From Gemmatimonadota bacterium (GTDB taxonomy: Bacteria; Gemmatimonadota; Gemmatimonadetes; Palauibacterales; Palauibacteraceae): 64,000 nucleotides of DNA. How positions within the stretch are numbered: position 1 is the first letter of the stretch; every line of letters starts with the position of its first letter. The notes beneath the pieces were generated by a model. The model saw only the letters and a list, made by a program, of their open reading frames with translations, had not been told where the DNA came from and ran no database searches. Made by a program: the position numbers and the translations under genes. Of the stretch, positions 12,196-63,272 are shown piece by piece. The DNA lies in the NCBI GenBank assembly GCA_039584255.1, contig JBDGYE010000005.1:1869-65868 (forward strand). Reading direction: 5' to 3'.

Positions 12196-12197
12196 GA

Positions 12198-12671: not shown

Positions 12672-12781
12672 GGCCGTGTTCTCCTGGTGCGGGAGTCGTG
12701 CCTCTAACTGAAGGAGTCCCGTTCGGGTCCTGGAGGGTCGCCGGACTCGTCCTGGCTCTCCTCCTCCTCGACCGTGATTTC

Positions 12782-12967
12782 CTAGACCTGCTGGATTCCG
12801 GGATCGAACACCGAATGCATCTCCAGCATGTGGTAGACCGCACCCCGCGCGCGACCCTTGGTCCGCCGGTAGAAGATCAACCCCATCCTTTCGGCCCACA
12901 GCAGCAGGCGGTCCACCACGACCGCCGCCACCAGGACAGCGATTGCCCACACGAGCAGCCTGGGCAT
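12782..12967 (-). CDS. hypothetical small membrane protein with Met/His-rich tail, translationally coupled to copCD
   Basis: The 61-aa ORF has an N-terminal TM helix (LLVWAIAVLVAAVVV) and C-terminal VYHMLEMHSVF. Its ATG overlaps the CopCD stop (ATGA) at 12965-12969. Confidence 0.35.
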   Translation of the reverse strand: MPRLLVWAIAVLVAAVVVDRLLLWAERMGLIFYRRTKGRARGAVYHMLEMHSVFDPGIQQV

Positions 12968-43833: not shown

Positions 43834-43836
43834 CGG

Positions 43837-45371: not shown

Positions 45372-45680
45372 GGCTTGGAGTCGGCTCGGAAGCCCTTTTC
45401 CCTTTCGGTGCCGGATCCGTTTCCGCTTCCGCCGCTCTTCGCAGCGCCGGCTCCTGGGGGGCAAGTTCGGTGCCGCATAGCCTGAGCTCGCCCATCAGTT
45501 CGCCCGATGACTCAAATCGCGACCCGACCGCCAGCTCGTAACGGCCACGCGGGGATCAGTTTGGGACACTGCGTCACGGGACGTGGCAGAATGACCGCTC
45601 GCGGGAGGGCTCGAAACGCGCGTGAGCGCCCGCACGGCAACTAGCTGTCGCACTGCGACGGAGCCGAGGTGGATCGCGCC

Positions 45681-48270: not shown

Positions 48271-48271
48271 C

Positions 48272-48955
48272 TCATTCCCTCGAAGCCAGATAGTAGACCT
48301 TGGGCTCGGTTCCAAGTTCTTCCATGATGCGCATCGCCCGCGACTCCTCCGCGAGTTGCGCTACGCGGTGCTCCGGATTGTCCAGGTCGCCGAAGACGAT
48401 GGCTTCGGTCGGGCACACTTCGGCGCACGCGGGCTGGTAGTCCTCCTCGCGAAGCGGCCGGCCGTCGGCGCGAGCGGCCTCGCGGGCCTTCTGGAGACGA
48501 TGATGGCAGAAGGTGCACTTCTCGATGACGCCCTTGGGCCGAACGGATACGTCGGGATTGAGATGCCGGCGCTCCGACTCGGCCCACTCCGGTCCGTACC
48601 AGTTGAAATACTTGACCACGTAGGGACAGGCGTTCGCGCAATAGCGGCAGCCGATGCAGCGCGGGTAGATCTGTCCGACGATTCCCTCATCGCTGATGTA
48701 GGTTGCCTCGACCGGACACACCTTGGTGCACGGCGGGTTGTCGCAGTGCATGCAGGGCCGCGGGTAGAACCTCATGGCCGTGTCGGGGAAATCGCCCTCG
48801 ATTTCCGTCACGACCGTCATCCAGCTCATGGCGCGACCGATCTCGGCCTGCCCGGGCGATACCGTGGGAATGTTGTTCTCGCTCTTGCACGCCACTTCGC
48901 AGGCCAAGCAGCCCGTGCAGCGGTCGAGGTCGATCACCATGCCCCATCGCGTCAT
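48272..48955 (-). CDS. 4Fe-4S dicluster iron-sulfur subunit (PsrB/DmsB/ActB2-like)
   Basis: MTRWGMVIDLDRCTGCLACEVACKSEN...CMHCDNPPCTKVCP...CIGCRYCANACP...CTFCHHRL...CAEVCP are four ferredoxin-type Cys clusters. Confidence 0.85.
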   Translation of the reverse strand: MTRWGMVIDLDRCTGCLACEVACKSENNIPTVSPGQAEIGRAMSWMTVVTEIEGDFPDTAMRFYPRPCMHCDNPPCTKVCPVEATYISDEGIVGQIYPRCIGCRYCANACPYVVKYFNWYGPEWAESERRHLNPDVSVRPKGVIEKCTFCHHRLQKAREAARADGRPLREEDYQPACAEVCPTEAIVFGDLDNPEHRVAQLAEESRAMRIMEELGTEPKVYYLASRE

Positions 48956-48968
48956 CGTCGCCAGCCTC

Positions 48969-51332
48969 TCACACCCGTTGGAGGCGCACGAAGGTCGTCG
49001 ACCAGGACTGAACACCCGTCAGGGGGTCGATCGAGCCATCGAGCACGCTGAGCGGGTTTGCGATTTCGCCGTCGGGGTGGCGGAGCCCGTAGGGTGCGCA
49101 AACGTGATCCGGGGGCGCACCCAAGAACAGCTTCAGCCGAGCGCGGTATCTGCCGCGTGACGACTCGACCCAGACCTGGGTGTCGTCCTCCAGACCTAGC
49201 GAGCGGGCCGTAGCCGGGTTCACCTCCACCCACGGATCCCAGTGAACTTCGGGGAACAGGCCGGGCTTTTCGGCGAGCCAACGCTCGAGGGCGAGGCTTC
49301 CGGATGCGAGCGTCGACACGCGGTACGGGACAAGACGCAGCGGGAAGCCATCGGTCGGGGCCACACCCCTGCTTCCCACATCGATGTAGGGCCGCCGCGG
49401 TCTGCCTTGGGCGTCCAGTACGACCGGCAGCCCCGGCGGCATCAGCTGGACGCGGCCATCAGACGTTCGGGCCAGGCGGCCGGGATCTGTGTGATCGTAG
49501 AACAGGTCCGTCCAGCCGCCTCTCTCCGTGAGCGCATCCCAGAACTCATCGAACTCCGTGTGCTGCGGCAGCCACCAGCCGCGCGACTCCATCTGCTCGT
49601 AATGCCTGCTCTCGAAGTCGCTTCTGAATGTCATGCCACGGCGTGCCGCGAACAGCCCTCGGGCGCGCTCTCTGAGCAGCGTTTCCACGCCGTCGTACGG
49701 AAGCGCCTCACGAACACCTCCGCCGAGCGCCCGCGCGATCTCGAGGACGGCATCGATCGTGTGCGTTCCACCCTCGTGCGGCGCAACGAGCGGCTGCGCG
49801 AGACCCCACACGGGATACGGGTAGGACTGTGGTGTGGGGGCGTCCTGCCAGCGCTCGTACGGAAGCAGGTCCGGCAACACGAGGTCTGCGTGCCGCGTGG
49901 TCTCGTCGAGGAAAGGCGAGAAGCTCACCACGTAGTCGATCATCTCCAATGCCTCACGCCAGACGTCAGGCGCGACCGACGAGGCGATCGGATTCGAATA
50001 GTAGAGGAAGAGGACTTCGACCTGTGCCGCGGCGCTTCCGACGATGGCCTCGGCGAATCGGTCGCGCTGGCCACCCGCCCCGAAGGCCGGAAGCGGGCCG
50101 GCCACACGCTCCCGGTCCAATCCGCGGCGCGCGGTATCGTCCAGAACCAGCGGCGCCAGCGGAGCGAGCGGCAGATCGTCCCCGAGCAGCACCCCGCCCG
50201 GCCGGTTGAGGTTGGCCGTGATCACGTTGACGCTGTGCACGGCCATGCCGGCGAGAAGTCCGTTCGGCGCAGCTGTGACGTCGCTCCCACAAATCGCAAC
50301 CGCTGCCGGGCTCTCGGCGTACGTCCTCGCCAGGGAGGTGATTCTCTCCACCGGCACACCGGTGATCGCCGATACCTCTTCTGTGCGGAAATTCCGGCTC
50401 ACGATAGACCGGTAGCCCTCTTGCAGCTGGCCTTCCACGTCCGTGAAGTCCTCGAAGCCGGACACTCGCTCGGCTATGAAGTCGAGTTCGAGCAGCTCGT
50501 CTCGGATCAGCACGTACGCGATCCCGAGTGCTAGGACCGCGTGGGTCCCCGGCCGGACACCCACCCACTCATGTGCTCGCGCCGCCGTCCTTGAGAAGCG
50601 CGTGTCCACCTGAATGAAACGGGAGCGCCGCGTTTCGTCGGATTCCGGATGGGCAAAACCCACGAAGGCCTGAAGGGGCGACCACCACGCCTCGAAGAGG
50701 GGGGCACCGAAGGAGAGCACCAGCTCTGAGTGGCCGAGATCGTAGCTCGGCCGCCGCTCGACCCCGTGCATCAGGGCCATCACCCCGTCGGTTCCGTCGC
50801 GGTAGTCATCGGCTATGTAATTCGGAGAGCCGAAAGCGGTGAGGAATTGGCGCCAGACATCCTCAACGGAGCCAGCACAGTATCCGGCGAGCAGGGCCAG
50901 CGCCTCGGGCCGGTCGGCCGCCCGCAGGCCCTTCAGGCGCTCAGCGATCAGAGCGAGAGCTTCATCGCGAGTCACCTGCCGCCACTGTCCTGAGCCCCGC
51001 GGGCCGTCTCTCACGATGGGTCCCGTGAGCCGCTGCGGATGGTAGAGTACCTGTACTCCCGCGATGCCACGCGGGCAGATACCCCCACGGCTCATCGGGT
51101 GAAGCGGGTTTCCGGCGATGCCTACGAGACGGCCGTCGACCAATCTGCCCCGAATGCCGCAACGCGCCGGGCAGAGCAAGCACGTCGACGCGCGAGCCTC
51201 CTCGAGCCCGGGCTCCCAGCCCTCGTATCCGTCCTGGTCCTGCGGCCACAAGACCTCCGGGACCCCCTGGAACGCCACGGCAGCCGCGGCCGCGCTGGCC
51301 GTCCAGAAGAACTCGCGACGAGTAGGGCTCAT
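48969..51332 (-). CDS. Tat-exported molybdopterin-oxidoreductase-family catalytic/large subunit (PsrA/PhsA/TtrA-like or cofactor-less ActB1-like)
   Basis: GGAGG RBS. The Tat signal is MSPTRREFFWTASAAAAAVAF. N-terminal Cys cluster C-x2-C-x3-C-x27-C (CLLCPARCGIRG...GGICPRG). Total ~787 aa. Confidence 0.8.
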   Translation of the reverse strand: MSPTRREFFWTASAAAAAVAFQGVPEVLWPQDQDGYEGWEPGLEEARASTCLLCPARCGIRGRLVDGRLVGIAGNPLHPMSRGGICPRGIAGVQVLYHPQRLTGPIVRDGPRGSGQWRQVTRDEALALIAERLKGLRAADRPEALALLAGYCAGSVEDVWRQFLTAFGSPNYIADDYRDGTDGVMALMHGVERRPSYDLGHSELVLSFGAPLFEAWWSPLQAFVGFAHPESDETRRSRFIQVDTRFSRTAARAHEWVGVRPGTHAVLALGIAYVLIRDELLELDFIAERVSGFEDFTDVEGQLQEGYRSIVSRNFRTEEVSAITGVPVERITSLARTYAESPAAVAICGSDVTAAPNGLLAGMAVHSVNVITANLNRPGGVLLGDDLPLAPLAPLVLDDTARRGLDRERVAGPLPAFGAGGQRDRFAEAIVGSAAAQVEVLFLYYSNPIASSVAPDVWREALEMIDYVVSFSPFLDETTRHADLVLPDLLPYERWQDAPTPQSYPYPVWGLAQPLVAPHEGGTHTIDAVLEIARALGGGVREALPYDGVETLLRERARGLFAARRGMTFRSDFESRHYEQMESRGWWLPQHTEFDEFWDALTERGGWTDLFYDHTDPGRLARTSDGRVQLMPPGLPVVLDAQGRPRRPYIDVGSRGVAPTDGFPLRLVPYRVSTLASGSLALERWLAEKPGLFPEVHWDPWVEVNPATARSLGLEDDTQVWVESSRGRYRARLKLFLGAPPDHVCAPYGLRHPDGEIANPLSVLDGSIDPLTGVQSWSTTFVRLQRV

Positions 51333-51355
51333 CCGTAACCTCCAGCCTCTATTCT

Positions 51356-51874
51356 CTATCGATGGCAGGCGTTGCAGTCGAGCGTAGCCCCCCGCTCGAG
51401 ATGGCAATCCATGCAGAAATCCATCGTCATCTCCACCAGCGGCCGGTTTGGTGGCCTAGTGGTCTCTGCTATCCTGCCGTGACATTCCTCGCACGGGAGC
51501 TCGGCGATTCCGACGTGCCGGCGGTGCGTGTAGAAGACGTGAGGTTCGAGCCGGAAAAGCTTGTTGAATCTCAGCGGGTCACCCTGGGCGATCAGTTCCG
51601 TGACCCGGGCGGCCTCTGGCGATGTCCCCTGCACGGTCTCGTGGCAGGCCGAACACGTTTCGGCGTCCGGAAGCCCGGCGTGGGCACCGGTGCCCACGTA
51701 AGGGTGGCAGAAGTCGCAGGCCATCTGGAACTCCCCGGCGTGTTTCAAATGGTTGAATTGAACGGGCTGGGGCACACGCGGACCGGGCGCAGCGACCAGG
51801 GATACTACCGACGCGATGACGACAATCGTCACGAAGACCACGACTCTTCGGCGCGAGATGCTGCGTCGCTTCAC
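51356..51874 (-). CDS. pentahaem c-type cytochrome with N-terminal TM anchor (ActA-like)
   Basis: N-terminal TM RRVVVFVTIVVIASVVSLVAA. Five CXXCH motifs (CDFCH, CSACH, CEECH, CMDCH, CNACH) in 172 aa. It is the first gene of the operon. Confidence 0.75.
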   Translation of the reverse strand: MKRRSISRRRVVVFVTIVVIASVVSLVAAPGPRVPQPVQFNHLKHAGEFQMACDFCHPYVGTGAHAGLPDAETCSACHETVQGTSPEAARVTELIAQGDPLRFNKLFRLEPHVFYTHRRHVGIAELPCEECHGRIAETTRPPNRPLVEMTMDFCMDCHLERGATLDCNACHR

Positions 51875-52188
51875 GCCAGCTTCCTTCCTTAACGTCGCCA
51901 GGAGAGACCGGACCGGTGAGCATCATGTCCGGCGTCGCAATGCCTAGGCACAAGCAATGCCGATGCCAGCATGTCCGTTGAATGAACGATTACGATAATA
52001 CCATATCATAAAACACGTTACCATTACAACTGTCGCACTCCATCTCGCCGGGGCCACAACAACGCGTGTCAGATTATGTGCCGTTATGACCCACGTCATC
52101 GCGCATGTGGGAGAGCTGTCCAGCGGGTGTCGGTGGGGTCCAGCTTCCGAGCGGAGTCGGGAACCGGGCTGCAAGCGCGGCCCCGCCG
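51875..52188 (-). promoter_or_regulatory. AT-rich intergenic region, putative promoter/regulatory region of the pentahaem-Mo-FeS-NrfD operon
   Basis: There is a local GC drop (…cgattacgataataccatatcataaaacacgttaccattacaactgtcgcac…). On the coding strand it contains TTGTAA...TATTAT-like hexamers. It shares a 10-mer CTGTCGCACT with the 45640 region. Confidence 0.3.
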
Positions 52189-53286
52189 TCAGACGGTGGG
52201 GCTGGCCGTGTAACCCAGAATAGTGAGCACGATGATATAGACTATGATGCCGACACCTATCCACGTGAACAGGTGGCTTCGCTCGCCACGTGCAGACCCT
52301 CGATCCAGGAAGGGAATGATCAGAAGGAGGAGCCCGGCCAGGGCAAACGCCATCGCGCCCACGACTTCGCCCTCGAACACGAGAATGTGGCTAGGGAGCA
52401 GCTTCAAGGTGTGGAACATGAACATGAAGTACCACTCGGGCTTGATGCCGATCGGAGCGGGCGCGAAAGGATCCGCCTTCGTTCCGAGCTCCGCCGGCAC
52501 GAAGGCCGCGAGCGCGGCAAGCACGCCGAGGGCGGCGAGCCAACCCACGAGGTCTCGGAGGAGGAAGTTGGGAACGAACGGAAGGCTCCGCCTGGTCTCC
52601 CTTTTCTCGGCGACATCTGGCGGAATGCTCATGCCGTGCCGCTGAACCATGAACAGGTGCAAGCCTATGAGAAGGACGGTGATAGAGGGAAGAATCGCAA
52701 CGTGGATCGCGTAGAAACGCGTCAGCGTCGCGCCTGACACATCTTCGCCTCCGCGCAGGAGTTGTTTGGCGAACGACCCCACCAGCGGGAAGACCCCCAC
52801 GATCTCGGTGCCGACTCTCGTGGCGAAGAACGCGAGCTCATTCCACGGCAGAAGGTAGCCCGTGAAGCCGAACGCCAGAGCCAGAACCAGCAGTCCGACA
52901 CCCGACAGCCACGTGATCTCCCGCGGCGGCCGGTAAGCCTTCAGAAGCAGTACGCTGAAGAGATGGATGAATACCGTGAAGATCATCAGGTTCGCCGCCC
53001 AGGAGTGCAGCGAGCGCACCAGCCAGCCGAATTCCACTTCGGCCATCAAGAACTGAACCGACTCGTACGCCTCCTCTGCGCTGGGCCGATAATAGAACAG
53101 AAGCAGCACGCCGGTGACCACCTGCACCAGGAAGAGAAACAGCGTCATTCCTCCCAGGTAATACCAGACGCTGTGCCGGTGGACCGGTACCTCTTTCTTC
53201 CTGGCGAGCTCGGCGAACGGAGCGAAGCCGATGCGATCGTCCAGCCACTTCCAGAGGTCACTCAGCGCCTGCCGGGATCTTCCCAT
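52189..53286 (-). CDS. cytochrome b (cytochrome bc complex, fused b6+subunit IV-type)
   Basis: The start [21 protein letters not shown] overlaps the Rieske stop (ATGA). The motifs ...[26 protein letters not shown]...[24 protein letters not shown]...[13 protein letters not shown] are canonical haem bL/bH His positions. Confidence 0.85.
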
Positions 53287-53288
53287 GC

Positions 53289-53744
53289 TCACGCCCCCCG
53301 GCTCACAACTATCTGATCGCCTCGCACGTTGACTTCGAAGGCATCGAGCGGTCGGGGTGGCGGGCCGGCGACGTTTCGACCGCTGAGGTCGAAGTGGCCG
53401 TTGTGGCAGGCACACCAGATGCGGCTGATGTCGTCGCGGTACTGCACGGTGCACTCGAGGTGAGAGCACACGGCCGAGAAGGCGCGGAGCTCTCCGTCTG
53501 GCGTGCGGACCAAGATTCCGGCCCGGTTGCCGAATCTGAACAGCCGGCCGTTGTTCGGAGCGATTTCCTCCGGCGCGAACGGCAACACGACCGAGCTCGC
53601 CGCCGATTCGGCGCTCGCGGGTGGAATGAGGTACCTGGTCACCGGGTAAAAGATCGCCAGCAGAATCCCCCCCACACCGGTCCCGAGGATCCAGTTGACG
53701 AACCTCCGTCGGGAAGCTCCGCCGGACTGTGAGGCTCCGCTCAT
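53289..53744 (-). CDS. Rieske [2Fe-2S] iron-sulfur subunit
   Basis: Tat-like [11 protein letters not shown] plus a TM. Box I CSHLEC and box [10 protein letters not shown] are present. Confidence 0.85.
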
Positions 53745-53782
53745 CAGTGCTCTCTCCTCCGCGAATCCAGAGGTTCGGGTGC

Positions 53783-55069
53783 TCAGGTCGTGCGACCTGC
53801 GGTGTGCCTTCCCTCGATCTGATGGATCTTCATCACAAGCCCGACTATCAGCACGATGATGACGATCACCGATGCGGCGAGGCCCATCCGACGGACCTGC
53901 AGATCGCGCAGCGCCCGAACGCCGCGCTCGACGCCCTCGGCGGCGATCTCCAGTCCTCCCTCGACTTCCGCACCGACAACGTCGGGGTTGAAGGCGTGAA
54001 CGGCCGCTCTGGCCTTTACGAGACCATCGTGGGCCCCCGTCATCTCGAATTGAGCCTGGCCGACCTCCATGCCGGCGTTCTCCGCTCGCGACAGGACCCA
54101 TTCCGCCGAATCCACAACGGTGCGCAACGAGTCGATCATGGCACGCATTGCCGCGGCGGCCTGACCGCCGGGATCATCCGCGGAATGGCATTGACTGCAT
54201 ACCGCATCGTCGGCCAGGCCGAGCATCGCGTCGCCGGCTTCGCCGATGTCGTGATTCCGGTGGCAGGTGGCGCACCCGGGAGTGCCGAGCAGGGTGAAGA
54301 CTTCTGCGTGGCGGGACTCTACGAAGTGGCCTGCCATCACGGCGTGACACTGCCCGCAGACATTGCCCACCCAAGAGATCCCGGGTGGGGCCGCGCCGTG
54401 ATTGCCGTGACAGTCGTTACAGGTAGGGGCCGAGAGGTCGCCCTCCTCGGACAGCATCCGCCAGTGCAGGCTGCGGTCGTACTTGTCCACCTGGTCCGAA
54501 GGCAGGCCGTACGGCTCCATGCGTTCCGGGTCTGCGTGACACTTCCCGCAAGTCTCCGTAACCCGTAGGGGGTGGACGCTCGAATTCGGGTCCGTCGGCC
54601 GCAGAATCTCGTGAGCGGGGTGACAGCTGATACATGTCGCAACGTTCGGGTCTCCGAGCTCCGTCAATCGGCGACCATGGGTGGAGGTCGCGTATTCCGC
54701 CAACTGGTCCACGCGGAGAGAGGGATTGTACCGCCTCATGAACTCAGCGTCCGCGTGGCACCGACCGCAAACCTCGAGGACCTGCCTGTGATCCGGAACG
54801 CCGATGTACCCCTTCATCGGGTCCATGGCCTCCAGTCCAGCCAACGTGGCGTCTCCCCCGTGGCACGCGATACAGCCGAATCCCTTGGCGGCGTGCACGT
54901 CCCGGGGGTAGCTCTCGGCCGGAGCGGCGAGACGCCCGCCGAGGGCTGCATGGCAGGTCAGGCACGTGCCGGTGGGCGGCTGGGCTTCCTGGCCCGGCGA
55001 TGCCGTTGGCCAGCCGGCAGCCGCGACGGCGATGGTCAGCAGACCGGCCCCTCTGTTGAGCCTCCTCAT
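53783..55069 (-). CDS. nonahaem c-type cytochrome with C-terminal membrane anchor
   Basis: Signal peptide. Nine CXXCH motifs (CLTCH, CIACH, CGRCH, CISCH, CGKCH, CNDCH, CGQCH, CATCH, CSQCH). C-terminal [23 protein letters not shown] overlap with the upstream cytochrome gene. Confidence 0.8.
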
Positions 55070-56280
55070 CGCGGCACCGCCAGAGATTCCAGAAACGCCC
55101 CTAGATCTGCCATCTCGCTTGGCGTAAAAGTAGGCCAGACTTCCCCGATGCCCGACTCGTACATAGCCGGGGCATGGTTCCAGAGCGAGGCAGCCATTCC
55201 GCCCGGAGAGTCGACGCCTCTCACCGCGGCCAGGTCCGGAGCGTTCGTCCCCCCGCGGCCGTTCAACGAATGACAGGCGAGGCAGCCCTTATCCCTCAAC
55301 AGGAGTCGTCCGCGGTCCGGATCGCCGGAATCCGCGAAGTACTGGACAGAGTGGAGGTATGCCACGAGATCCGCCATCTGTACGGCCGACAGCTTGGGGA
55401 CCGACAGCCCTCTGGCCCTCAACGCGCGGCGCATCGCCGGAGCTTTGTTAAGCATAGCCGCAGCGAACTCGGTCATGCTCCGCCTGCCCCGGCCCCCTGC
55501 CAGATCGGGACCGAGCCGTCCTCCTCGGCCCAGGATGCTGTGGCAATCGATGCAACCCTTCTCCACGACCAGCCGCCTTCCCTCGTCCGCCCGCCCGGGC
55601 AATACGTGCAGAGGGCCTTGTGGCCAATCCCCCGCGGCGGATTCCAGGTAAGAGATCAGGTCGATGAGCTCGCTGCCCGAGACAGACGACCGCTCGATGC
55701 CGAGAGCGTTCATCGCTTCGTCCATGGCCGGCCCGTGGTTCCACATCGCCGCCGCGACCTGGATCGGCGATCCGAAGTAGCTCACGAACTCGAGGTTCGG
55801 ACCGATTACGCCGCCCACGCCGCCGACCTGATGGCACATCACGCAGCGCTTTTCCGTGAACAGCTCCCGGCCGTGCGCGGCATCGCCGGGAGGATCGAAG
55901 TAGTCGAGCGTGAACAGGAAGGCGATGAGATCGCTCGTCTCCTGCGCCGTCATCTGTGGCCGGTCGATGCCGAGGCTCCCCATGCGTTCGACCATCCGTG
56001 GAACGTGGTTCCACATGTGCGCGGCCAGCTCATAGAACGTCTTCCTCTCGGAAGAGGCTCCCAGATCCGGGCCCTCGTCTCCGCCGAGCCCGCGGACGGC
56101 GTGGCACTTCACGCAACCCTTTTCCCCGAAGACCTGCGCTCCGGCGAAGGCGTTCTGAGCCGGTCCCGCCGGCGTCTGCGCAAGGCTCGCCGTAGTGGCT
56201 CCGAACAGCGCAAGTACGGCAGCCAGGGGGACGATGATGGACCGGTGCGGATGCCCCATGCGGATACTCTCGTCAGTCAT
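55066..56280 (-). CDS. c-type cytochrome with four class-I monohaem domains (paralog of 45681..46901)
   Basis: CVKCH, CVMCH, CIDCH, CLACH, each followed by the G.GG..GP(D/N)L and MWNH/LWNH motifs. Signal peptide present. Confidence 0.75.
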   Translation of the reverse strand: MTDESIRMGHPHRSIIVPLAAVLALFGATTASLAQTPAGPAQNAFAGAQVFGEKGCVKCHAVRGLGGDEGPDLGASSERKTFYELAAHMWNHVPRMVERMGSLGIDRPQMTAQETSDLIAFLFTLDYFDPPGDAAHGRELFTEKRCVMCHQVGGVGGVIGPNLEFVSYFGSPIQVAAAMWNHGPAMDEAMNALGIERSSVSGSELIDLISYLESAAGDWPQGPLHVLPGRADEGRRLVVEKGCIDCHSILGRGGRLGPDLAGGRGRRSMTEFAAAMLNKAPAMRRALRARGLSVPKLSAVQMADLVAYLHSVQYFADSGDPDRGRLLLRDKGCLACHSLNGRGGTNAPDLAAVRGVDSPGGMAASLWNHAPAMYESGIGEVWPTFTPSEMADLGAFLESLAVPR

Positions 56281-56528
56281 GGTGTACCAACCTGCATATC
56301 GACCGCGGACAGCTTAAGGGCAAGAATGGCAGATGCTGCGAAGGCTTATAATGAGCGGCTGTCGCCCCCATACGCCAGACCCGTGAGGCCGCGGTCCGGA
56401 CAGCGGTCGAGCTTTCGTCCATCGGGGCCCGTTGGTATCGTAATTGCGAGGGCACACGGTGACACACGGCCGCCAGGGCCGAACGGTCTGTAGACCAGGC
56501 CGGGAGCTCGACAACAAGGAGAGCGAGC

Positions 56529-56924
56529 ATGAGGAGAGCGCTGAGTTTGATGCTGGGCCTGACCCTTGTCTTCGGTTTCGGCTTGCAGGCCGCGGCCGCA
56601 CAGGAGTCTGGCAAGCCGGCTGCCGTGACCCACGATCTCGAGGGCAAGGACAACTGCCTGATGTGCCACAAGACCGGGGTCATGGAAGCTCCGGTCGCGC
56701 CCGAGAGCCATGCCGACCGCACGAGCGACGTGTGCCTGCTATGCCACGGCGAGGGCTCGCCGATGCAGACAGCGGATGCGGGAGCGATCCCCCACGATCT
56801 CGAGGGCAAGGACAACTGCCTGATGTGCCACAAGACCGGGGTCATGGAGGCGACGAAGATTTCGGAGAATCACGGCGAGGTGGCGAACGAGCAGTGTCAG
56901 CTCTGCCATACGCCGGCCGGCTGA
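56529..56924 (+). CDS. small periplasmic tetrahaem c-type cytochrome (tandem dihaem modules)
   Basis: The signal peptide is MRRALSLMLGLTLVFGFGLQAAAAQE. Four CXXCH motifs (CLMCH, CLLCH, CLMCH, CQLCH) occur in a ~105-aa mature protein. Confidence 0.75.
   Translation: MRRALSLMLGLTLVFGFGLQAAAAQESGKPAAVTHDLEGKDNCLMCHKTGVMEAPVAPESHADRTSDVCLLCHGEGSPMQTADAGAIPHDLEGKDNCLMCHKTGVMEATKISENHGEVANEQCQLCHTPAG
56631..56849 (+). repeat. 162-bp-period tandem duplication inside the tetrahaem gene; first ~57 bp of each unit identical except 1 nt
   Basis: cacgatctcgagggcaaggacaactgcctgatgtgccacaagaccggggtcatgga(a/g)g occurs at 56631-56687 and 56793-56849 (HDLEGKDNCLMCHKTGVMEA twice). The rest of each unit has diverged (ESHADRTSDVCLLCHGEG vs ENHGEVANEQCQLCHTPAG). 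Confidence 0.85.
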
Positions 56925-57075
56925 GCCGGACCCTCCGACTCCTGGAGGCAAGCGCTTCCGGAGTCGCAAGTAGGGAGTAGATAGACTCATAAACTCAGAT
57001 CGCCGCGGCGCCTGACCGACGCCGCGGCGATCTTCTTTGTTGTCCGCAGGGCTTTGAGCCCCCTGCCCGATACCT

Positions 57076-58470
57076 CTACGGCGAGTCCAGCTGGAATCCG
57101 AAGTGGCAGATGCCGCAGGACATCTCGCTCTTCTCCCGGACGTGCTCGGGGTCGAAGTCGGGCCCGTGTGGGTTGATCCGGAAGCCTTCCTTCGCCGAGT
57201 GGCAGCGTAGACACGAATCCTGCTGGTGGCAGGAGACGCAGGTCTCCAGGTTCTGTCGGGCCGCCTGCCCGTGGCTCTGAAACCAGTTCGGATCCGCGTC
57301 GTGGTAGCCGCCGGCGGTCCTTTCGTCCTGGCCGGCACCCTGGCTCTCATGGCAGTTCCGGCAGAAGACCTCGCGCGAGTGGCACTCGGCGCATTCCATC
57401 GGCGCGGCCCAGGCCTCCGCGGGGTGACGCTGGACGAAGTTCACCGGATGAAAGACGGGCCGCCCCGCTCCGTCGTGACAGTCGATGCAGAACGTCTCGG
57501 CATGGCAGGCGGAGCACTTTGGAGTCGCCGCCACGGCCGCCTCGCCGTGCGCCACCGCGAAGGTCGGTCCGTGACCGGGAACTTCCCCGCTGGCCGGCAC
57601 GGCTCTGGCAGAAGCTCCGTGGGCCTCCGGGAAGCCGTCGGTCACGCGGTCACCCGTGTCGAGGTGACAGGCAGAGCACGTCTCCGCCGCGTGGCAGGTG
57701 GAGCAGCTCTGAGGCGAGGTCTCCGCAAGCGCGGAGTGCGTCATCTGCCAGTCGGACGCCTGGTGGCTCGGCGGAATCGGCCAGCTTCCCTCGCGGCCGG
57801 TAACCATCTCGGCCACGCGCCCGTCCGCGGCGAGAGCCATGATTGGCGCCACCGCCGCGGCGTTGGCGTGGCAGCGGGTGCAGCTCTCCCGGGCGTGGCA
57901 GACTGAGCACCGGGCCACGTCGTCAAGGGCCGCTGCGCCGTGCTGGAAGGCGAAGTCGGCCGACCCGTGATCCGGTGGCGCGGAAAACGCCGCGATCGTG
58001 GCCGCCGTCATCGCCGGCGCCTCGGAGAGTGTCATGTGGCACTGTGCACACGGCACGCCCGCGGCCTGGTGATCCTCCGTGCCGGGCGCGTGGCAGGCCA
58101 TGCAGGCCTCGGCGGCGGCGGCCTGAACCTCCATCTCGCCGCCGGTGCCGGGAGTCTGGTGGCAGGCGCCGCAGGGGAGCTCCGGGTGGCCCGGGTGGAC
58201 CGTCTTAAGGTTCCCCGCCGGTTGCTCGGCCCGGCCCTCCCACGCAACCGCCGGGAGGTTGGTGCCATCGTGGCATCCGCCGCACAGCGTCGGCTCGACG
58301 GATACCGACTGCTCCGGCTCTCCCGCCTCGATGCCTTCGTGACACGCGGTGCAGGTGGGGAAGATCCCCTGATGCCGCGCGTGCGGGAACGGCGTCTCCT
58401 GTGGGCGCGAGAGCATGACCCCCACACCGAACAGCAGCCCGACGGAAGCTAGCAACGCCGCTCGTTTCAT
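57076..58470 (-). CDS. 16-haem c-type cytochrome (secreted; very high haem density)
   Basis: The start MKRAALLASVGLLFGVGVML (58470) overlaps the stop of the upstream beta-barrel gene (ATGA). Sixteen CXXCH motifs occur in ~464 aa, about 1 per 29 aa. Confidence 0.8.
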   Translation of the reverse strand: MKRAALLASVGLLFGVGVMLSRPQETPFPHARHQGIFPTCTACHEGIEAGEPEQSVSVEPTLCGGCHDGTNLPAVAWEGRAEQPAGNLKTVHPGHPELPCGACHQTPGTGGEMEVQAAAAEACMACHAPGTEDHQAAGVPCAQCHMTLSEAPAMTAATIAAFSAPPDHGSADFAFQHGAAALDDVARCSVCHARESCTRCHANAAAVAPIMALAADGRVAEMVTGREGSWPIPPSHQASDWQMTHSALAETSPQSCSTCHAAETCSACHLDTGDRVTDGFPEAHGASARAVPASGEVPGHGPTFAVAHGEAAVAATPKCSACHAETFCIDCHDGAGRPVFHPVNFVQRHPAEAWAAPMECAECHSREVFCRNCHESQGAGQDERTAGGYHDADPNWFQSHGQAARQNLETCVSCHQQDSCLRCHSAKEGFRINPHGPDFDPEHVREKSEMSCGICHFGFQLDSP

Positions 58471-59942
58471 CAGTAGCCTCCGATTCCCCGCAGCGAGGTG
58501 CGCGGCTGGGCCGCCATGGTGCCGAAGCGGTAACCGAGCGACAGGTGGGCCCGCGCCTGAGTCCAATCCGGGCTGTCCGGTCGCTTGTCGTACGTCATTC
58601 GGTAAAGGCCACCGCTTCCCGACACGGAAAACGTCCCGACATTCCAGGAGAAGTCGAGCCCGCCGCCGGAGGCGACCTGCTCACCGACGCGAAACTCGCC
58701 GAACGTCTGGGTGACGGTACCGTGCAGTGCCAGCCTGATATCGGGTCCGAAGGTTCGGCCCACGGTGAGATCACCTCCGTAGCGCGCGGCGCCGAAGCCG
58801 GTCTCCGACCGGTAGCCCCCGTCGACGAACCAGTCGCGTCCCCGCCACCGCCCACCGGCCAGAAGGCGCCAGCCGTCGGTCTTCATGGGTGCTAATTCTG
58901 CGCCCGCGTTGGCCTTCTCGTAGTCGCGGTATCCGCCTCCCACCTCCAGCGTCAGGGTCGAGCCGGGGAGGGTCCAGCTCAGCAGTCCACGGCCCTCCTT
59001 GAATCCGACCGGAGTAAAGGCGCCCCAGATCGTCCACAGCTCGAAGAAAGGAGTGTAGTGCCTTCCCTCCAGCGTCAGGTGGAAGCCTTTCGGAAGCGGG
59101 GCGGCGGCGGCCAGCCGGGCCGAGTTGACCTCCTTGTAGGCCAGGTCATAAGCCAGTGAGCCGTCGATCACGACCTGCGGCAGCATCAGCCGCGCATCTG
59201 CAGCGATCCGCTCGGAGTAGAGGGCCAGGCGATCGGTGCGGATCTCGCGCTGGTACAGGCCGCTGAGGAAGAATTTCCTCTGGACGTCGACTCCGGCCTC
59301 GAAGCCGTAGATCAGGGCCCGCTTGTCCGGCGCGAAGACGTCGTTCTCGCTGAGCAACTTCCCGCTTCGCGGAGCGTTCGTGCCCGGGTAGAGGCTCCAA
59401 CCTCCCCAGGCCTCCAGCCGGAGCACGTCGAGTCCCTTCCAGAGAACCGACCCTCCATCGAAGTTGCGGTAGCCCAGGCTGCTCGCTCGCAGCAGCCGGC
59501 CCGCCGTGGCGCGCCACCCGGCCCGCTCGTACCGCGCGTAGCCCGTGATCAGGTCGAACTCCTGGCTCGACTTCGGCCACACCTCGTCGCTCAGAAAGCG
59601 GGTCCGCATCTGGCTGTGCACGGAGAGTCCTTCCACCCCGAGCCAGGCCGCGAACCGGATGTCGCCGTAGGTCGGAGTGACCGTCTGCACATCGCCAGCA
59701 CGGTACCAGCGGCAGAAGTCGTCGGTGAGGCAGGTAACGATGGTGCCGTTCGCGAGCCGTCTCTGAAGCCCGTCGCCAGGAACGCTGCTCTCCGGGACGC
59801 TGTCTCGCACCAGGCCGCGCAGCTCGAGCACGTCTCCCCGTACCCTTACCTCGGCCTGGTATCCCTGAGCGGCGAGTGAAAGTGGACTCAGCGGGGCTGC
59901 CAGGAGGAGGAGAGCGAGCGCCCGTCGATGGACGGTCATCAT
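58470..59942 (-). CDS. outer-membrane beta-barrel protein (candidate cytochrome-associated porin, MtrB/OmbB-like role)
   Basis: Signal peptide MMTVHRRALALLLLAAPLSPLSLAAQG. About 490 aa with abundant alternating hydrophobic/polar β-strand segments (…GLDFSWNVGTFSVSGSGGLYRMTY…, …HLSLGYRFG…). The C-terminal residue is Tyr. An N-terminal C-x5-C (CLTDDFC) is present. Confidence 0.55.
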   Translation of the reverse strand: MMTVHRRALALLLLAAPLSPLSLAAQGYQAEVRVRGDVLELRGLVRDSVPESSVPGDGLQRRLANGTIVTCLTDDFCRWYRAGDVQTVTPTYGDIRFAAWLGVEGLSVHSQMRTRFLSDEVWPKSSQEFDLITGYARYERAGWRATAGRLLRASSLGYRNFDGGSVLWKGLDVLRLEAWGGWSLYPGTNAPRSGKLLSENDVFAPDKRALIYGFEAGVDVQRKFFLSGLYQREIRTDRLALYSERIAADARLMLPQVVIDGSLAYDLAYKEVNSARLAAAAPLPKGFHLTLEGRHYTPFFELWTIWGAFTPVGFKEGRGLLSWTLPGSTLTLEVGGGYRDYEKANAGAELAPMKTDGWRLLAGGRWRGRDWFVDGGYRSETGFGAARYGGDLTVGRTFGPDIRLALHGTVTQTFGEFRVGEQVASGGGLDFSWNVGTFSVSGSGGLYRMTYDKRPDSPDWTQARAHLSLGYRFGTMAAQPRTSLRGIGGY

Positions 59943-60087
59943 GCATGCTCCGGGGAGTGTGGGTTCAACCACCGTCGAGTCCCGCTATTCGGCTGCCTCA
60001 ACTTGATGTACGCTTCCCAATGCATCAACCCCGCCGGGGGACGGCTCAGTGACCGGTCCCCGGGGAGCCACCTGATATGGCCGCGGC

Positions 60088-62922
60088 TCACCGATAGCCG
60101 AACAGCGCCGAGTACACGATGAGGAGGATCAGAAAGGTCCCAACGCCCAGCATCGTGAATCCGAAGATCCGGAACGCCAGCTCCACTCTTTGCGGGTAAG
60201 GCACCACGAGTCGCTGTTCGAACTCACCCTGCGCGACCATCCGCTCGTACTCGCGTGGCTTGTCGCGTCTGAGCTCCTCCACCGAGACCCGGCCCGTGAA
60301 GATCACCGGATCCATGGGAAACTTGTCGAGTCGGAAGTGCGTGTTGAAGAAGTGGATGGTGAAGATAAACGCCACCGCAAGTAGCGCTTCGTCGCTGTGG
60401 ATGATCGTCGCCACGTTCACCAGCTTCCCCGGAAGGAGGATCGTGAAGAACTCGGGAAACCAGAGCAGAAGCCCCGTCGAGCCGATCACGAACATCCCCC
60501 AGAACACGGCGAAGTAGTCGAACTTCTCCCAGTATGTGTAGCGCCCGTACTTCGGTCGTGGCCCCCGCCCGAGGAACCACTTGACCGAGGCCATGAACTC
60601 CCGGACGTCGTCCATGTTGAACACCAGGGAGTCGCGGGACTTGATCAACTCCAACCAGGTCTGGCCGGCGCGCTTCTTCTGCTTACGTACATCGATGAGG
60701 TGAATAATGAACACCGCGATCAGCGCCACGGCTCCGAGCCGGTGCCATACTCCCAGGGCCCCGAAGCCGCCCAAGAGCCACGCGAAACTCTGGGCCCAGC
60801 CCATGTGCGAGAACTTGAGTGCCATCCCGGTCGCCGCGAGCGTCATGAAGCTGAGCATCATGACTATGTGGAGCGAGCGCTGGAACGTCGTGAACCGGCG
60901 GTACTCCTTCCGGGACCTAGCCGCGGCGTCCACCGTCTCAGGTGCCTTCCACTCGTCCGGTGAGCGCCACAACCGCCACAGCCAGGCGGCCGTATGGGTC
61001 GTAGCGACGGTCAACGTGCCGATCAGCAGGCTCGCCATGAACCAGAAGGTCCAGAACAGGAAGGGGTACCGATCCGGATCGTGGTGCGTGGCGTGCGTCA
61101 GGTAGCCCGTGAACCTTCTGTTGGCTCCTCGGTGACATTGCCCGCACGTGTCGACGATGTGACGGCGGCTCAGGGTGGAAGCCGGCTCGCTGGGCGGGAG
61201 GATGGAGTGCGTTCCGTGGCAGTCGTAGCACTTCGCGGCCCGCTCTTCCCCGAGGCGCGAGACCTTGCCATGGTACGTGTCGAAGAAGGTCTCGGCCTCA
61301 CTCTCATGGCAGCGGCCGCACTGGTCCATCATCAGCAGCCTGAAGTCGGCCCTGTCCGTGCGGCTGATGGTGTGCGATGTGTGACAGTCCTCGCAGGTCG
61401 GCAGCTCGTGCTCCCCGGTGGGCTCGCCCACTCCCGGCCAGTGGATGCTCCCCCGGAACTGCTCTTCGATCCCGTGGTGACACTCGCCGCATGTGATGGC
61501 GACGTTCGCGGGGTGCACCTTCGAGCCCTCGTCCTCGGCCGGGAGCTCACTGTGCGCGCCGTGGCAGCTCGTGCAAGTGGCCGTGACCACGAGGCCGCTC
61601 TCGATGAGCCCCTTCCCGTGGATGCTCATCTCGTAGGAGCCGACGATGTCGCCGAAGCGACTCGGGATTCGGGTCGCAGCCGCCTCGCCGGGCCGATGAC
61701 AGCGTGCGCACAGGTCCGGTACGTTCCTCGGGTAGGTGGGCGAGGTCGGCACCCGCTTGTCCATCTCGGCGTGCTTGTCGTGGCAGTCGTAGCACGTAGG
61801 GGCATCCGCGTCGCCCTGCGCCGCCAGGGTGCCGTGTGCGCTCCTCTCGTACTCCGCCATCACGTCGGCGTGGCAGATTCCGCAATCGACGGGCGACTCT
61901 ATCGTCTCACAGGGTCGCTCGTCGTAGAGCGCCGTCACCTCGACGTGACACTGCGCACACGAGGTGCCCGAATGATCCGACTCGTTGAAGGCCTCCTCGT
62001 CCACGTGCATGGACACATGCTGGACGCCTCTCCGGTCGACCACGAGGTTCGGGTCGGCGTGGCAGCGCATGCAGTCCTGGTTGGAGACCCCCGCGTCGTA
62101 GAACACCTGCCGGATCCTGTGCGGCGAGTGACAGTCCACGCAGGCCGGGATGACCTCGGGCTCCTCCTCCCACAGGTGCCCCTCGATGACCTGGACATGC
62201 ACCTCCTCGATCCGCCCGTGGCACCGCGTGCAGGTGGCGGCGACGTTGTCGAGGTGGATGCTGGAGCGCGGATCGGTATGCGGCAGAATCCGGTGCGACG
62301 TATGGCATGACGTGCAAACCGCCGTGACCGTGAGTCCCTGCCGGAACAGCCCGGTTCCGTGAATCGAGAGTGAGTAGTTCTCGAGGATCCTGTCCTCCGG
62401 GATGTCCCTCGTGCGCGAGACCTCCGTTCCTTCGTGGTGGCATTCCCCGCACAGCAAGGGGATGTTCATCACCGCGGTCGGAGACTCCGGGTCCGAGCTC
62501 CGGAGGACATCGTGCCTGCCGTGGCAGTCGGAGCAGCTCGGAGCGAGGGGGTCTCCCCTGGCCGCCGCCCGCCCGTGTAGCGACTCGCTGTGCTCTCGGT
62601 CCTGGATCGAGTGACAGCGCCCGCAGTCGGCCGGCGCGCGGTCCTCAGGATGGGGGAAGGAGAGTCCTGCGTGGCAGTCGGTGCACCCGAGGCGGGCGTG
62701 AACCGATCCGTCGAGCTGGTCCTGGGTGATCACGAAGCGCTGCCCGTCGGCCCGGGTCTGCCAGAACTCGGGGTTCTGGTGGCACATCAGACAGGCCGCG
62801 TTGTCCTGCGCGCGCGCCGGGGTCACGGCCGTCAGTAGAACCGCGAGCGTCAGGCACAGCGGCAGGATGCCTGAGGACAGGCGGATCCACCTGTTCCATC
62901 TATGCCCGAATCGAGACGTCAT
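60088..62922 (-). CDS. 19-haem c-type cytochrome fused to a C-terminal HydC/FdnI-like dihaem b-type cytochrome membrane domain (CbcL-like)
   Basis: The start is at MTSRFG (or MRNGPRDR, 62946), followed by a signal/anchor. There are 19 CXXCH motifs in the first ~640 aa. The last ~330 aa are 4-5 TM and clearly paralogous to ORF 63273..63983 (e.g. RFTTFQRSLHIVMMLSFMTLAATGMALKFSH vs VFFQRSELIQHMLLAVSFIVLVITGFALRYPD; ...YWEKFDYFAVFWGMFVIGSTGLLLWFP... vs ...YWALIWGTLLMVFTGLVLWFP...). Confidence 0.8.
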   Translation of the reverse strand: MTSRFGHRWNRWIRLSSGILPLCLTLAVLLTAVTPARAQDNAACLMCHQNPEFWQTRADGQRFVITQDQLDGSVHARLGCTDCHAGLSFPHPEDRAPADCGRCHSIQDREHSESLHGRAAARGDPLAPSCSDCHGRHDVLRSSDPESPTAVMNIPLLCGECHHEGTEVSRTRDIPEDRILENYSLSIHGTGLFRQGLTVTAVCTSCHTSHRILPHTDPRSSIHLDNVAATCTRCHGRIEEVHVQVIEGHLWEEEPEVIPACVDCHSPHRIRQVFYDAGVSNQDCMRCHADPNLVVDRRGVQHVSMHVDEEAFNESDHSGTSCAQCHVEVTALYDERPCETIESPVDCGICHADVMAEYERSAHGTLAAQGDADAPTCYDCHDKHAEMDKRVPTSPTYPRNVPDLCARCHRPGEAAATRIPSRFGDIVGSYEMSIHGKGLIESGLVVTATCTSCHGAHSELPAEDEGSKVHPANVAITCGECHHGIEEQFRGSIHWPGVGEPTGEHELPTCEDCHTSHTISRTDRADFRLLMMDQCGRCHESEAETFFDTYHGKVSRLGEERAAKCYDCHGTHSILPPSEPASTLSRRHIVDTCGQCHRGANRRFTGYLTHATHHDPDRYPFLFWTFWFMASLLIGTLTVATTHTAAWLWRLWRSPDEWKAPETVDAAARSRKEYRRFTTFQRSLHIVMMLSFMTLAATGMALKFSHMGWAQSFAWLLGGFGALGVWHRLGAVALIAVFIIHLIDVRKQKKRAGQTWLELIKSRDSLVFNMDDVREFMASVKWFLGRGPRPKYGRYTYWEKFDYFAVFWGMFVIGSTGLLLWFPEFFTILLPGKLVNVATIIHSDEALLAVAFIFTIHFFNTHFRLDKFPMDPVIFTGRVSVEELRRDKPREYERMVAQGEFEQRLVVPYPQRVELAFRIFGFTMLGVGTFLILLIVYSALFGYR

Positions 62923-63272
62923 TCGATCTCTCGGTCCGTTTCTCATCCGCACGACCGGTTGGCAGGGCAGGTCGTGCCTAATCCATGTAGCTGCAAGAAG
63001 CGGACTCGGTCGAGCGGAGGTGGCCGCTGGGCATTGTGCCGCTTCGGGACGGGGAATCTGCTGGTTGGCCGATCGGGTCGCGCGCCCTTTCCGCACAACG
63101 GCGCGCGGGTCGCGGGGTCAATGTGTCACATCATGTTCGTGAAAGACCGCGCAGGAGTGTAGTGAGAACAGCCGCAAGGCTGTAACGCCATGCTGCAGAT
63201 CCGGTTGTGGCCCTCAGAATGGGCCCGGGGCCCAACCGGGCGCCCGGCGGCCCCCCGTCCATCGAATGATCC

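Follow-up and report, generated by a model that had tools for sequence, protein, structure and literature searches.

Rieske/cytochrome b cores with multihaem cytochrome partners are an established kind of complex. In Geobacter, the GSU2930-2937 (ExtKLMNOPQS) cluster encodes a Rieske protein (ExtO), a cytochrome b (ExtP) and a membrane protein (ExtQ) together with 5-, 12-, 10- and 2/4-haem cytochromes; it lies near the porin ExtI and has been linked to selenite and tellurite reduction (PMC2825233; PMC5877670). In anammox bacteria, Kuste4569-4574 and Kustd1480-1485 encode b6f-like cores in which a hexa- or octahaem cytochrome anchored by a transmembrane (TM) helix replaces cytochrome f, and the long helices of one of these replacement cytochromes wrap the complex (PMC12954380). 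By contrast, the Chlorobaculum complex uses an unlinked, membrane-anchored monohaem cytochrome, c-556 (PMC10172866). Here, we analysed a minus-strand operon at 52189-56280 of a 64,000-nucleotide stretch of Gemmatimonadota bacterium DNA (contig JBDGYE010000005.1; hereafter, the window). Its four genes encode, in order, a tetra-domain cytochrome c (c4x), a nine-haem (nonahaem) cytochrome c, a Rieske protein and a cytochrome b. We propose, with a probability of roughly 60%, that this operon specifies a menaquinol:multihaem-cytochrome oxidoreductase in which the anchored nonahaem cytochrome replaces cytochrome c1 or f and feeds periplasmic, and possibly extracellular, electron-transfer chains.

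The window operon shares different features with each of these systems. It resembles the Chlorobaculum complex in that its cytochrome b is long, fused and marked by PEWY, and also in its b6f-type Rieske protein (compared with PDB entry 8hn2), the lack of a c1 or f gene in the operon and its membrane-anchored acceptor. However, the acceptor in the window is an operon-encoded nonahaem protein of 428 residues rather than an unlinked monohaem cytochrome, and the window has an additional tetra-domain cytochrome c and no link to a photosynthetic reaction centre. As in Geobacter, the Rieske/cytochrome b core is accompanied by several multihaem cytochromes close to an outer-membrane porin, but cytochrome b stands apart from the subunit-IV-like protein in Geobacter and is fused to it in the window, and the cytochromes belong to other families, with no ExtM, ExtN or ExtS model reaching its cut-off (ExtS, 48.6 vs 100 bits). 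The anammox complexes likewise combine a b6f-like core with a multihaem cytochrome that has a TM helix and stands in for cytochrome f, and the window Rieske protein matches those of Kuenenia (9rk4 and 9rk3) at about 1e-10. Those complexes differ in that b6 and subunit IV are split and haem cN is present, and in that they include an NAD(P) oxidoreductase subunit; one of them also has an HAO-like octahaem cytochrome. Neither an NAD(P)-binding FeS flavoprotein nor an HAO-like octahaem cytochrome was found in the window operon or its conserved neighbourhood.

Four genes packed tightly into one unit

An earlier note on this DNA, made from the letters and open reading frames (ORFs) alone, had placed four minus-strand genes here, and our reading of the ORFs bore out all four at the same limits (Table 1). 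The c4x stop codon overlaps the nonahaem start codon in an ATGA overlap (CGATGAGG), as the note had stated. The second ATGA overlap that it had assigned, between the Rieske and cytochrome b genes, was a misreading: after the Rieske TGA (53291-53289) come GC and the cytochrome b ATG at 53286, so that the gap is 2 nt. The sole option that gives an overlap with the Rieske gene (GTGA) is an alternative cytochrome b GTG start at 53292. Between the nonahaem and Rieske genes, the 38-nt spacer carries a GGAGGAG sequence ≈10 nt 5' of the Rieske ATG and shows no T-run, no terminator-like site and no significant RNA structure (fold z = -0.93). A terminator between 53744 and 53783, which the note had named as grounds for doubting co-transcription, is thus absent, and we judged independent transcription of the cytochromes to be unlikely. 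The ATGA overlap, the short spacer with its ribosome-binding site and the 2-nt gap together support the reading of the four genes as one tightly packed unit.

Neither a sigma-70-like promoter nor an intrinsic terminator was found around the operon, and there is no terminator-like fold just 3' of cytochrome b (z = -0.13). Because 56281-56528 contains no sigma-70 consensus, the operon promoter is placed by position alone, and the transcript limits were inferred because the promoter and terminator scan was negative.

The core is b6f-like and lacks the haem ci cysteine

In an end-to-end alignment, residues 9-222 of the cytochrome b correspond to cytochrome b6 (E 6e-59), and subunit IV of the b6f complex is matched by residues 246-328; in Pfam, the protein matches Cytochrome_B (E 1.4e-52) as well as Cytochrom_B_C. 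The PetD-like C-terminal part, for which the earlier note had proposed a check, is therefore present. The protein has seven hydrophobic TM helices and no cysteine. The four histidines that serve as haem ligands do not vary across 63 sequences; they form two pairs, on helices B and D, for two b haems, and the helix-D pair (His195 and His210) has the same spacing as His187 and His202 of b6. The Qo-site motif PEWYF lies at residue 283, and PEWY is present in 62 of the 63 relatives. By contrast with b6f, the CxGG position of haem ci reads YLGG in the window and YY[LFMIV]GG among relatives, and is never Cys in the 63 sequences.

The Rieske protein has an RRRF twin-arginine (Tat) motif within SRRRF, an N-terminal TM helix at residues 15-36, and the cluster boxes CSHLEC and CACHNGHF, including the disulfide cysteines, which are kept across 63 sequences. 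Both its TM anchor and its cluster domain are PetC-like (Pfam Rieske, E 6e-12; TM_PetC, 34 bits), and its best PDB matches are the Chlorobaculum tepidum protein 8hn2 (E 1.8e-14) and cyanobacterial PetC.

We judged the affinities of the core by relative HMMER scores. The whole cytochrome b scores 155-174 bits against bc1 cytochromes b, compared to 203 bits for the b6 part alone. NCBIfam models stay below their cut-offs for b6 (237 vs 325 bits) and PetC (72 vs 250 bits), and likewise for ExtP, the second-best cytochrome b match (222 vs 290 bits), and ExtQ (20.6 vs 150 bits). An identical 365-residue protein is already on record, annotated as 'cytochrome b6'. Judged by these features, the core is a b6f-like, 'green-lineage' Rieske/cytochrome b, fused as in Chlorobi and predicted to lack haem ci. 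It is neither a textbook b6f, from which it differs by the fusion of b6 and subunit IV, the replaced ci cysteine and the lack of cytochrome f and of small subunits in the operon, nor a textbook bc1, whose cytochrome b has eight TM helices and which has a monohaem c1 gene.

By its features, the core appears to fit the 'Chlorobi/NC10/Acidobacteria' cytochrome b clade, of Kao & Hunte 2014 (PMC4122944). The matching traits are a long cytochrome b with PEWY, the absence of the ci cysteine, a b6f-type Rieske protein, and relatives in NC10/Methylomirabilis and Blastocatellia, with close relatives of the window cytochrome b in Methylomirabilis and Acidobacteriota. Compared by features only, it may also belong to 'clade G-prime'/J of Dibrova et al. 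2017 (PMC5600118); that paper describes clade G-prime as long cytochromes b in large conserved operons with unassigned function.

In the family of the window Rieske protein, the second cluster box, CACHNG[HQ][FY], lacks the Ser of CPCHGS, and the Tyr is also missing in half of the sequences. Residues of the cluster boxes tune the potential of Rieske proteins. Such a box, together with the prediction published for the clade (PMC4122944), suggests a cluster of low-to-middle potential that is fit for menaquinol.

The cytochrome b is 72-78% identical, at a fixed length of 365 residues, among Gemmatimonadota, Rokubacteria, Methylomirabilis and a metagenome-assembled genome (MAG) labelled Armatimonadota. 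Divergence is faster in the nonahaem cytochrome (about 60% identity) and c4x (about 50%). The unusual conservation of cytochrome b across phyla suggests strong constraint, lateral spread of the operon, or both.

The nonahaem cytochrome has the topology of c1 and f

The nonahaem cytochrome begins with a signal-like N-terminus, carries exactly nine CxxCH motifs and has only one TM helix, which is C-terminal (residues 395-413). An N-terminal signal and a C-terminal TM anchor also make up the topology of cytochromes c1 and f. All 62 complete orthologues (62/62) have nine CxxCH motifs, and eight further histidines (59, 131, 153, 202, 224, 254, 273 and 358) and four methionines are conserved, which would be enough for nine six-coordinate haems. 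No CxxCK motif is present. In an AF2 model built from 41 sequences (pLDDT 79.8), a haem-binding region of short helices is followed by long helices at 300-331, 337-359 and 362-426, the last of which holds the anchor.

As a single sequence, the nonahaem protein matched no PDB chain at E <= 0.01. The family profile gave weak matches to OcwA (6i5b, E 6e-5), HAO (0.011) and NrfA (0.02), and the best Foldseek hits in the PDB were HAO (E 0.013) and, at a probability of 0.99 over ≈170 residues, octahaem nitrite reductases, with TM-scores near 0.2 (HAO, ≈0.24). The long C-terminal helices resemble those of the NrfA/ONR/HAO/OcwA superfamily, and the model and profile matches give a weak hint of kinship to it. 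Among its members, OcwA of Thermincola potens is like the window protein in its nine haems, the weak profile and fold matches and the long C-terminal helices. However, there is no significant single-sequence similarity to OcwA and no sign of a catalytic five-coordinate haem, and the window protein is membrane-anchored and tied to a Rieske/cytochrome b core. The Desulfovibrio nine-haem cytochrome (NhcA) family, whose structure is in the PDB, does not appear among the PDB matches of the sequence or the profile. The nonahaem family has no specific model of its own in Pfam or NCBIfam, and we found no description of it, or of its obligate pairing with Rieske/cytochrome b, in the searchable literature.

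The nonahaem gene stays with the core across phyla

We scanned one genome per species for relatives of the nonahaem cytochrome and analysed the best 80 loci. At least 590 species-level genomes have relatives, and a search of representatives of clusters at 50% identity gave 524 at E <= 1e-30, most of them full-length (≈420 residues). The 80 loci come from Gemmatimonadota (45), Acidobacteriota (17; Blastocatellia/Pyrinomonadaceae, Vicinamibacterales and others), Methylomirabilota (5; NC10/Rokubacteria), Deltaproteobacteria-type genomes (6) and Binatia (2), with 5 unclassified or doubtful. From an all-against-all clustering of the ORFs, families 3-6, 8, 9, 18, 21, 40 and 45 were discarded as alternative-frame shadows of real genes in GC-rich DNA.

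The nonahaem gene adjoins the Rieske and cytochrome b genes in 73 of the 80 loci, in two gene orders and at least five phyla: nonahaem-Rieske-cytochrome b in 62 loci, and Rieske-cytochrome b-nonahaem in 11, mostly Blastocatellia/Pyrinomonadaceae. The remaining loci comprise six that are ended by contig edges and one true exception. The gene arrangement, found again in 73/80 related loci, is far beyond chance. The genes also co-evolve, as pairwise identities of the nonahaem cytochrome correlate with those of cytochrome b (Mantel r 0.88) and the Rieske protein (r 0.80), and none of 999 permutations, run on frame-checked ORFs, reached the observed value. Moreover, no c1- or f-like gene was found in the operon or in the conserved neighbourhood of the 80 related loci.

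These results agree with the co-conservation that the earlier note had expected and speak against the objection it had raised, that homologs might always pair this core with a standard c1, since the partner is the nonahaem cytochrome throughout, with the one true exception. Its view that the arrangement is unusual did not hold, given at least 590 genomes, 524 clusters and the multihaem-linked cores of Geobacter and anammox bacteria. We conclude that the complex is widespread, in hundreds of soil and groundwater bacteria.

Two side observations arose from this survey. The synteny of locus L020, which is labelled Akkermansiaceae, is of the full Gemmatimonadota type, at 49-71% identity; this points to a recent transfer or to an error in binning. 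Some Gemmatimonadota, though not the window, carry a degenerate second copy of the module 3' of cytochrome b, at about 10-14 kb in locus coordinates (L002, L007, L013, L014, L016, L027, L036, L040, L047 and L058). It consists of an 8-9-haem cytochrome, its own nonahaem cytochrome, a Rieske-fold protein in which both cluster boxes are lost (SPxDGC / SPCxY), and a cytochrome b paralogue of ≈440 residues that is 41% identical over the b6 part and has no PEWY. A bc complex may have given rise to this second module, which could act as a Rieske-less quinol oxidase.

c4x is a facultative partner

The c4x protein has an N-terminal signal peptide and matches Pfam Cytochrom_C in four stretches (E 7.5e-35), which correspond to four homologous class-I domains of ≈90 residues, each with an invariant Met in MWNHxPxM. 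Compared to all PDB chains, it gave no match. A c4x gene lies directly 5' of the nonahaem gene in 38 of the 69 loci with room for it; elsewhere, its slot is filled by a 16-haem cytochrome or other multihaem cytochromes. The '9+4' haem complement of the earlier note is therefore not a fixed set. A paralogue of c4x (34% identical) is the last gene of the adjoining operon for a quinol oxidoreductase like alternative complex III (ACIII). As c4x is facultative and its paralogue ends the ACIII-like operon, it looks like an exchangeable periplasmic carrier common to two quinol oxidases.

The operon lies in an island of haem-rich, quinone-linked modules

The operon sits within a 20-kb island of haem-rich, quinone-linked modules that ends near 42.5 kb (Table 1). 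The earlier note had placed it directly beside an ACIII/Psr-like operon; the adjacency was confirmed, with a gap of 314 nt, and the neighbour probably uses its own promoter, separate from that of the Rieske/cytochrome b operon, because the gap contains an AT-rich stretch. This stretch (51980-52045; GTTGTAATGGTAACGTGTTTTATGATATGGTATTATCGTAATCG) is strikingly AT-rich for a genome of ≈65% GC and probably has a promoter or regulatory function. The ACIII-like operon departs from the typical form in that ActB is split into a Tat-exported molybdopterin-type protein, which retains a CxxCxxxC Fe4S4 motif, and a separate FeS protein; it has a single NrfD-type subunit, and a four-domain cytochrome c replaces the monohaem ActE.

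Table 1. Positions of the operon and of neighbouring features in the window
Feature	Position	Strand	Remarks
NrfD-type membrane protein	42634-43833	-	quinone-linked module 42634-45464
4Fe-4S protein	43837-44685	-	quinone-linked module 42634-45464
Octahaem cytochrome	44643-45464	-	quinone-linked module 42634-45464
ACIII-like quinol oxidoreductase operon	45681-51874	-	five genes, 314 nt beyond cytochrome b
c4x paralogue	45681-46985	-	ACIII-like operon, last gene
NrfD-type protein	46894-48315	-	ACIII-like operon
4Fe-4S protein	48272-49015	-	ACIII-like operon; 247 aa
Molybdopterin-type protein	48969-51407	-	ACIII-like operon; 812 aa
Pentahaem ActA-like protein	51356-51874	-	ACIII-like operon
Gap between cytochrome b and ActA-like genes	51875-52188	-	314 nt, AT-rich stretch at ≈51980-52045
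Cytochrome b, b6 + subunit-IV-like fusion	52189-53286	-	365 aa, 7 TM helices
Rieske [2Fe-2S] subunit	53289-53744	-	151 aa, Pfam Rieske
Spacer between nonahaem and Rieske genes	53745-53782	-	38 nt, Shine-Dalgarno-like GGAGGAG
Nonahaem cytochrome c, C-terminal membrane anchor	53783-55069	-	428 aa, 9 CxxCH
c4x, tetra-domain class-I cytochrome c	55066-56280	-	404 aa, 4 CxxCH; first operon gene
Intergenic region, c4x (-) / divergent small tetrahaem gene (+)	56281-56528		presumed promoter region
Small secreted tetrahaem cytochrome c	56529-56924	+	131 aa, 4 CxxCH; between 16-haem gene and c4x
Porin-cytochrome-type cluster 5' of operon	57076-63096	-	three genes
16-haem cytochrome	57076-58470	-	porin-cytochrome-type cluster; start overlaps barrel stop by 1 nt
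Outer-membrane beta-barrel	58470-59942	-	porin-cytochrome-type cluster; 490 aa, no Pfam family
19-haem cytochrome + FdnI/HydC-type b membrane domain (CbcL/MtoC-like)	60088-63096	-	porin-cytochrome-type cluster

On the 5' side of the operon, the barrel of the porin-cytochrome-type cluster has at least 24 strands in an AF2 model (pLDDT 83.9), and Foldseek matched it to outer-membrane barrels, including a 24-strand usher pore and MtrB. Its family is nearly confined to Gemmatimonadota. GC-rich hairpins at ≈56995-57075 (GGGCAGGGGGCTCAAAGCCCTGC, and GATCGCCGCGGCG...CGCCGCGGCGATC then TGAGTTTATGAG) lie directly 3' of the 16-haem gene, facing the small tetrahaem gene, and look like a bidirectional terminator between the barrel cluster and the Rieske/cytochrome b operon. 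The barrel cluster is a separate transcription unit, with an opposite-strand gene and a hairpin between it and this operon. The small tetrahaem gene contains an internal direct repeat of ≈55 nt that encodes HDLEGKDNCLMCHKTGVME twice, and its homologues (family f48) lie close to the operon in L041, L044, L045 and L067. A minus-strand ORF at 56273-56845 was rejected as a spurious shadow of this gene.

Similar neighbours recur among the related loci. Another cytochrome with at least eight haems lies within 7 kb in 63 of the 80 loci, and a large barrel gene is present in 24. The trio of 19-haem, barrel and 16-haem genes stands beside the nonahaem operon in L020, L022, L024, L025, L028, L041 and L044, and an ACIII-like operon adjoins it, in varying order, in L002, L014, L022, L037, L042, L062 and L068. 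The octahaem/4Fe-4S/NrfD trio was seen beside it in either orientation in ≈14 loci (e.g., L007, L010-L013, L015, L016, L026, L027, L036 and L067). Blastocatellia have the order decahaem-750-aa protein-Rieske-cytochrome b-nonahaem-octahaem-nonahaem, in which the decahaem cytochrome scores 268 bits for the DmsE/MtrA family. The 750-aa protein matches no Pfam or NCBIfam family and has no profile similarity to the window barrel; by the appearance of its sequence, it is a putative outer-membrane protein. In NC10/Rokubacteria, c7-type trihaem, 13-haem, NrfH-like and decahaem cytochromes are encoded 3' of cytochrome b. Small monohaem genes (families f47 and f49) occupy this side in some of the related loci.

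The porin-cytochrome (PCC)-type clusters of Fe(II) oxidizers resemble the barrel/16-haem/19-haem cluster of the window (PMC5566968). Moreover, one sentence of a 2026 metagenome paper states that some porin-cytochrome clusters in MAGs from karst groundwater contain petB/petC (PMC13264449). With their small decahaem cytochrome, large outer-membrane porin and Rieske/cytochrome b genes, those clusters are like the Blastocatellia/Pyrinomonadaceae loci. However, a nonahaem cytochrome is not mentioned in that paper, and in the window the barrel cluster is a transcription unit of its own.

Proposed function and alternative explanations

In the menaquinol:multihaem-cytochrome oxidoreductase that we propose, quinol would be oxidized at a canonical Qo site, with its PEWY motif and Rieske cluster. 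One electron would pass through the two b haems, without a haem ci, to the Qi site in a proton-motive Q cycle, while the mobile Rieske head would carry the other to the haem nearest the membrane in the nonahaem cytochrome, from which it would follow a nine-haem wire out to the periplasm. There, c4x, with His/Met ligation, would be an exchangeable acceptor and probably a route to oxidases, N-oxide reductases or similar acceptors of high potential; other acceptors would be the large multihaem cytochromes and the outer-membrane barrel or decahaem modules found with the operon in many genomes. We regard the nonahaem cytochrome as the third redox subunit because its linkage to the core survives a change of gene order across phyla and because it has a c1/f-like topology. 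On this sequence-based ground, it would be physically associated with the complex, whereas we infer the quinone type, the direction of electron flow and the final acceptors.

Several points weigh against this proposal. In the one true exception among the related loci (L017, a Rokuibacteriota MAG; 8650-12800), nonahaem and Rieske genes are present and a histidine kinase and a response regulator occupy the place of cytochrome b; this break could be a rearrangement or a mis-assembly. The co-variation of the linked genes partly reflects shared genome history. Multihaem cytochromes with mostly bis-His ligation often have low potentials, which would make them poor acceptors for a Rieske cluster. Scans covering part of the window found no terminal oxidase or reductase in it. 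The use of menaquinone is deduced from the Rieske box, which is CACHNG and not CPCHGS, and from what is generally known of Gemmatimonadota quinones. It also draws on the low-to-mid potential predicted for the clade (PMC4122944). Finally, as the closest characterized relative, the Chlorobaculum complex, uses the unlinked c-556, a distant partner for the window core is conceivable.

This last point leads to the explanation that the nonahaem cytochrome and c4x are co-transcribed periplasmic carriers and not subunits, and that the core uses an unlinked small cytochrome, as in green sulfur bacteria. Such a role would fit Chlorobaculum, the nearest characterized system by Rieske similarity, with its c-556 encoded elsewhere (PMC10172866), as well as the dispensability of c4x in many loci and the small monohaem genes (f47 and f49) that follow cytochrome b in some. 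However, these monohaem genes are limited to a few lineages, and the nonahaem gene remains beside Rieske/cytochrome b across phyla despite the change of gene order, retains exactly nine haems and a C-terminal anchor, and co-varies with cytochrome b at r 0.88, which makes a carrier-only role unlikely. We give still less credence to the idea that the nonahaem cytochrome is itself a catalytic enzyme of the NrfA/ONR/HAO/OcwA type, set on the core as a quinol-driven reductase of nitrite, hydroxylamine or metals. An analogous proposal exists for the HAO-like octahaem cytochrome of anammox Kuste4569-4574, and the Foldseek matches to HAO and octahaem nitrite reductases, the profile matches to OcwA, HAO and NrfA and the long C-terminal helices all recall this superfamily. 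But these matches are all weak and mostly driven by CxxCH motifs, with TM-scores of ≈0.2, there is no CxxCK, and the eight conserved His and four conserved Met suffice for nine six-coordinate haems; for these reasons, a catalytic role was judged quite improbable.

The remaining explanations concern where the electrons go. It is possible, though tentative, that the complex is an energy-conserving, Q-cycle gateway at the inner membrane for extracellular electron transfer in Gemmatimonadota, Acidobacteriota and Methylomirabilota, with high-potential acceptors outside the cell, such as Mn(IV), chelated Fe(III) or oxidized humics. It would then be a third kind of quinol oxidase beside the CymA/NapC and ImcH/CbcL types; electrons would exit via the attached barrel or decahaem conduits, and the CbcL-like and NrfD-type modules would serve acceptors of lower potential. 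Alternatively, the same complex could run in reverse. Donors outside the cell or in the periplasm (Fe(II), reduced humics or Mn(II)) would then supply electrons by way of the barrel/decahaem and multihaem modules, and the proton motive force would drive the electrons uphill through the nonahaem cytochrome and the Rieske protein to quinone. In Acidithiobacillus ferrooxidans, a c4-type cytochrome and bc1 are reportedly encoded in one operon. Uphill flow has been proposed for the petI bc1 complex of this organism, in whose uphill branch c4-type cytochromes occur (PMC5566968). Reverse flow would also be consistent with the DmsE/MtrA/PioA-family decahaem cytochrome and putative outer-membrane protein directly 5' of Rieske/cytochrome b in Blastocatellia, as MtoAB/PioAB-type conduits serve Fe(II) oxidation, and with the adjoining ACIII-like operon, as ACIII has been proposed for Fe(II) oxidizers (PMC5566968); CbcL/MtoC-type proteins, like the 19-haem one, occur in metal reducers and oxidizers alike (PMC6295460). 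However, the uphill step would be very steep with a low-potential quinone such as menaquinone, the carriers of the operon come mostly from lineages known as heterotrophs, and scans covering part of the 64-kb window found no carbon-fixation or Cyc2-type gene. The sequences themselves hold nothing that discriminates direction. We treat reverse flow as a doubtful alternative to the forward oxidation of menaquinol.

Significance

The cytochrome b clade to which the window core appears to belong already stands in published trees. The operon is nothing out of the ordinary within its family, which is widespread and is itself a variant, as yet undescribed, of the Rieske/cytochrome b complexes with multihaem partners. 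The nonahaem family, which has 524 clusters at 50% identity but neither a solved close relative nor a curated model, is a clear target for structural work. Among the most abundant bacteria in soils and aquifers are Gemmatimonadota, Acidobacteriota and Methylomirabilota/Rokubacteria, and the 'complex III' of these groups appears often to be this uncharacterized nonahaem form. If the nonahaem cytochrome does replace c1 or f, the complex would be a natural example of a Q-cycle enzyme whose electrons flow out into a haem wire and not into a single haem. It would then be relevant to how bc complexes tune their high-potential branch with low-potential quinones and to whether multihaem cytochromes were the ancestral acceptors of Rieske proteins, as proposed by Dibrova 2013 (cited in PMC5317091). 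It would likewise bear on whether extracellular electron transfer can be linked to proton translocation at the step of quinol oxidation.

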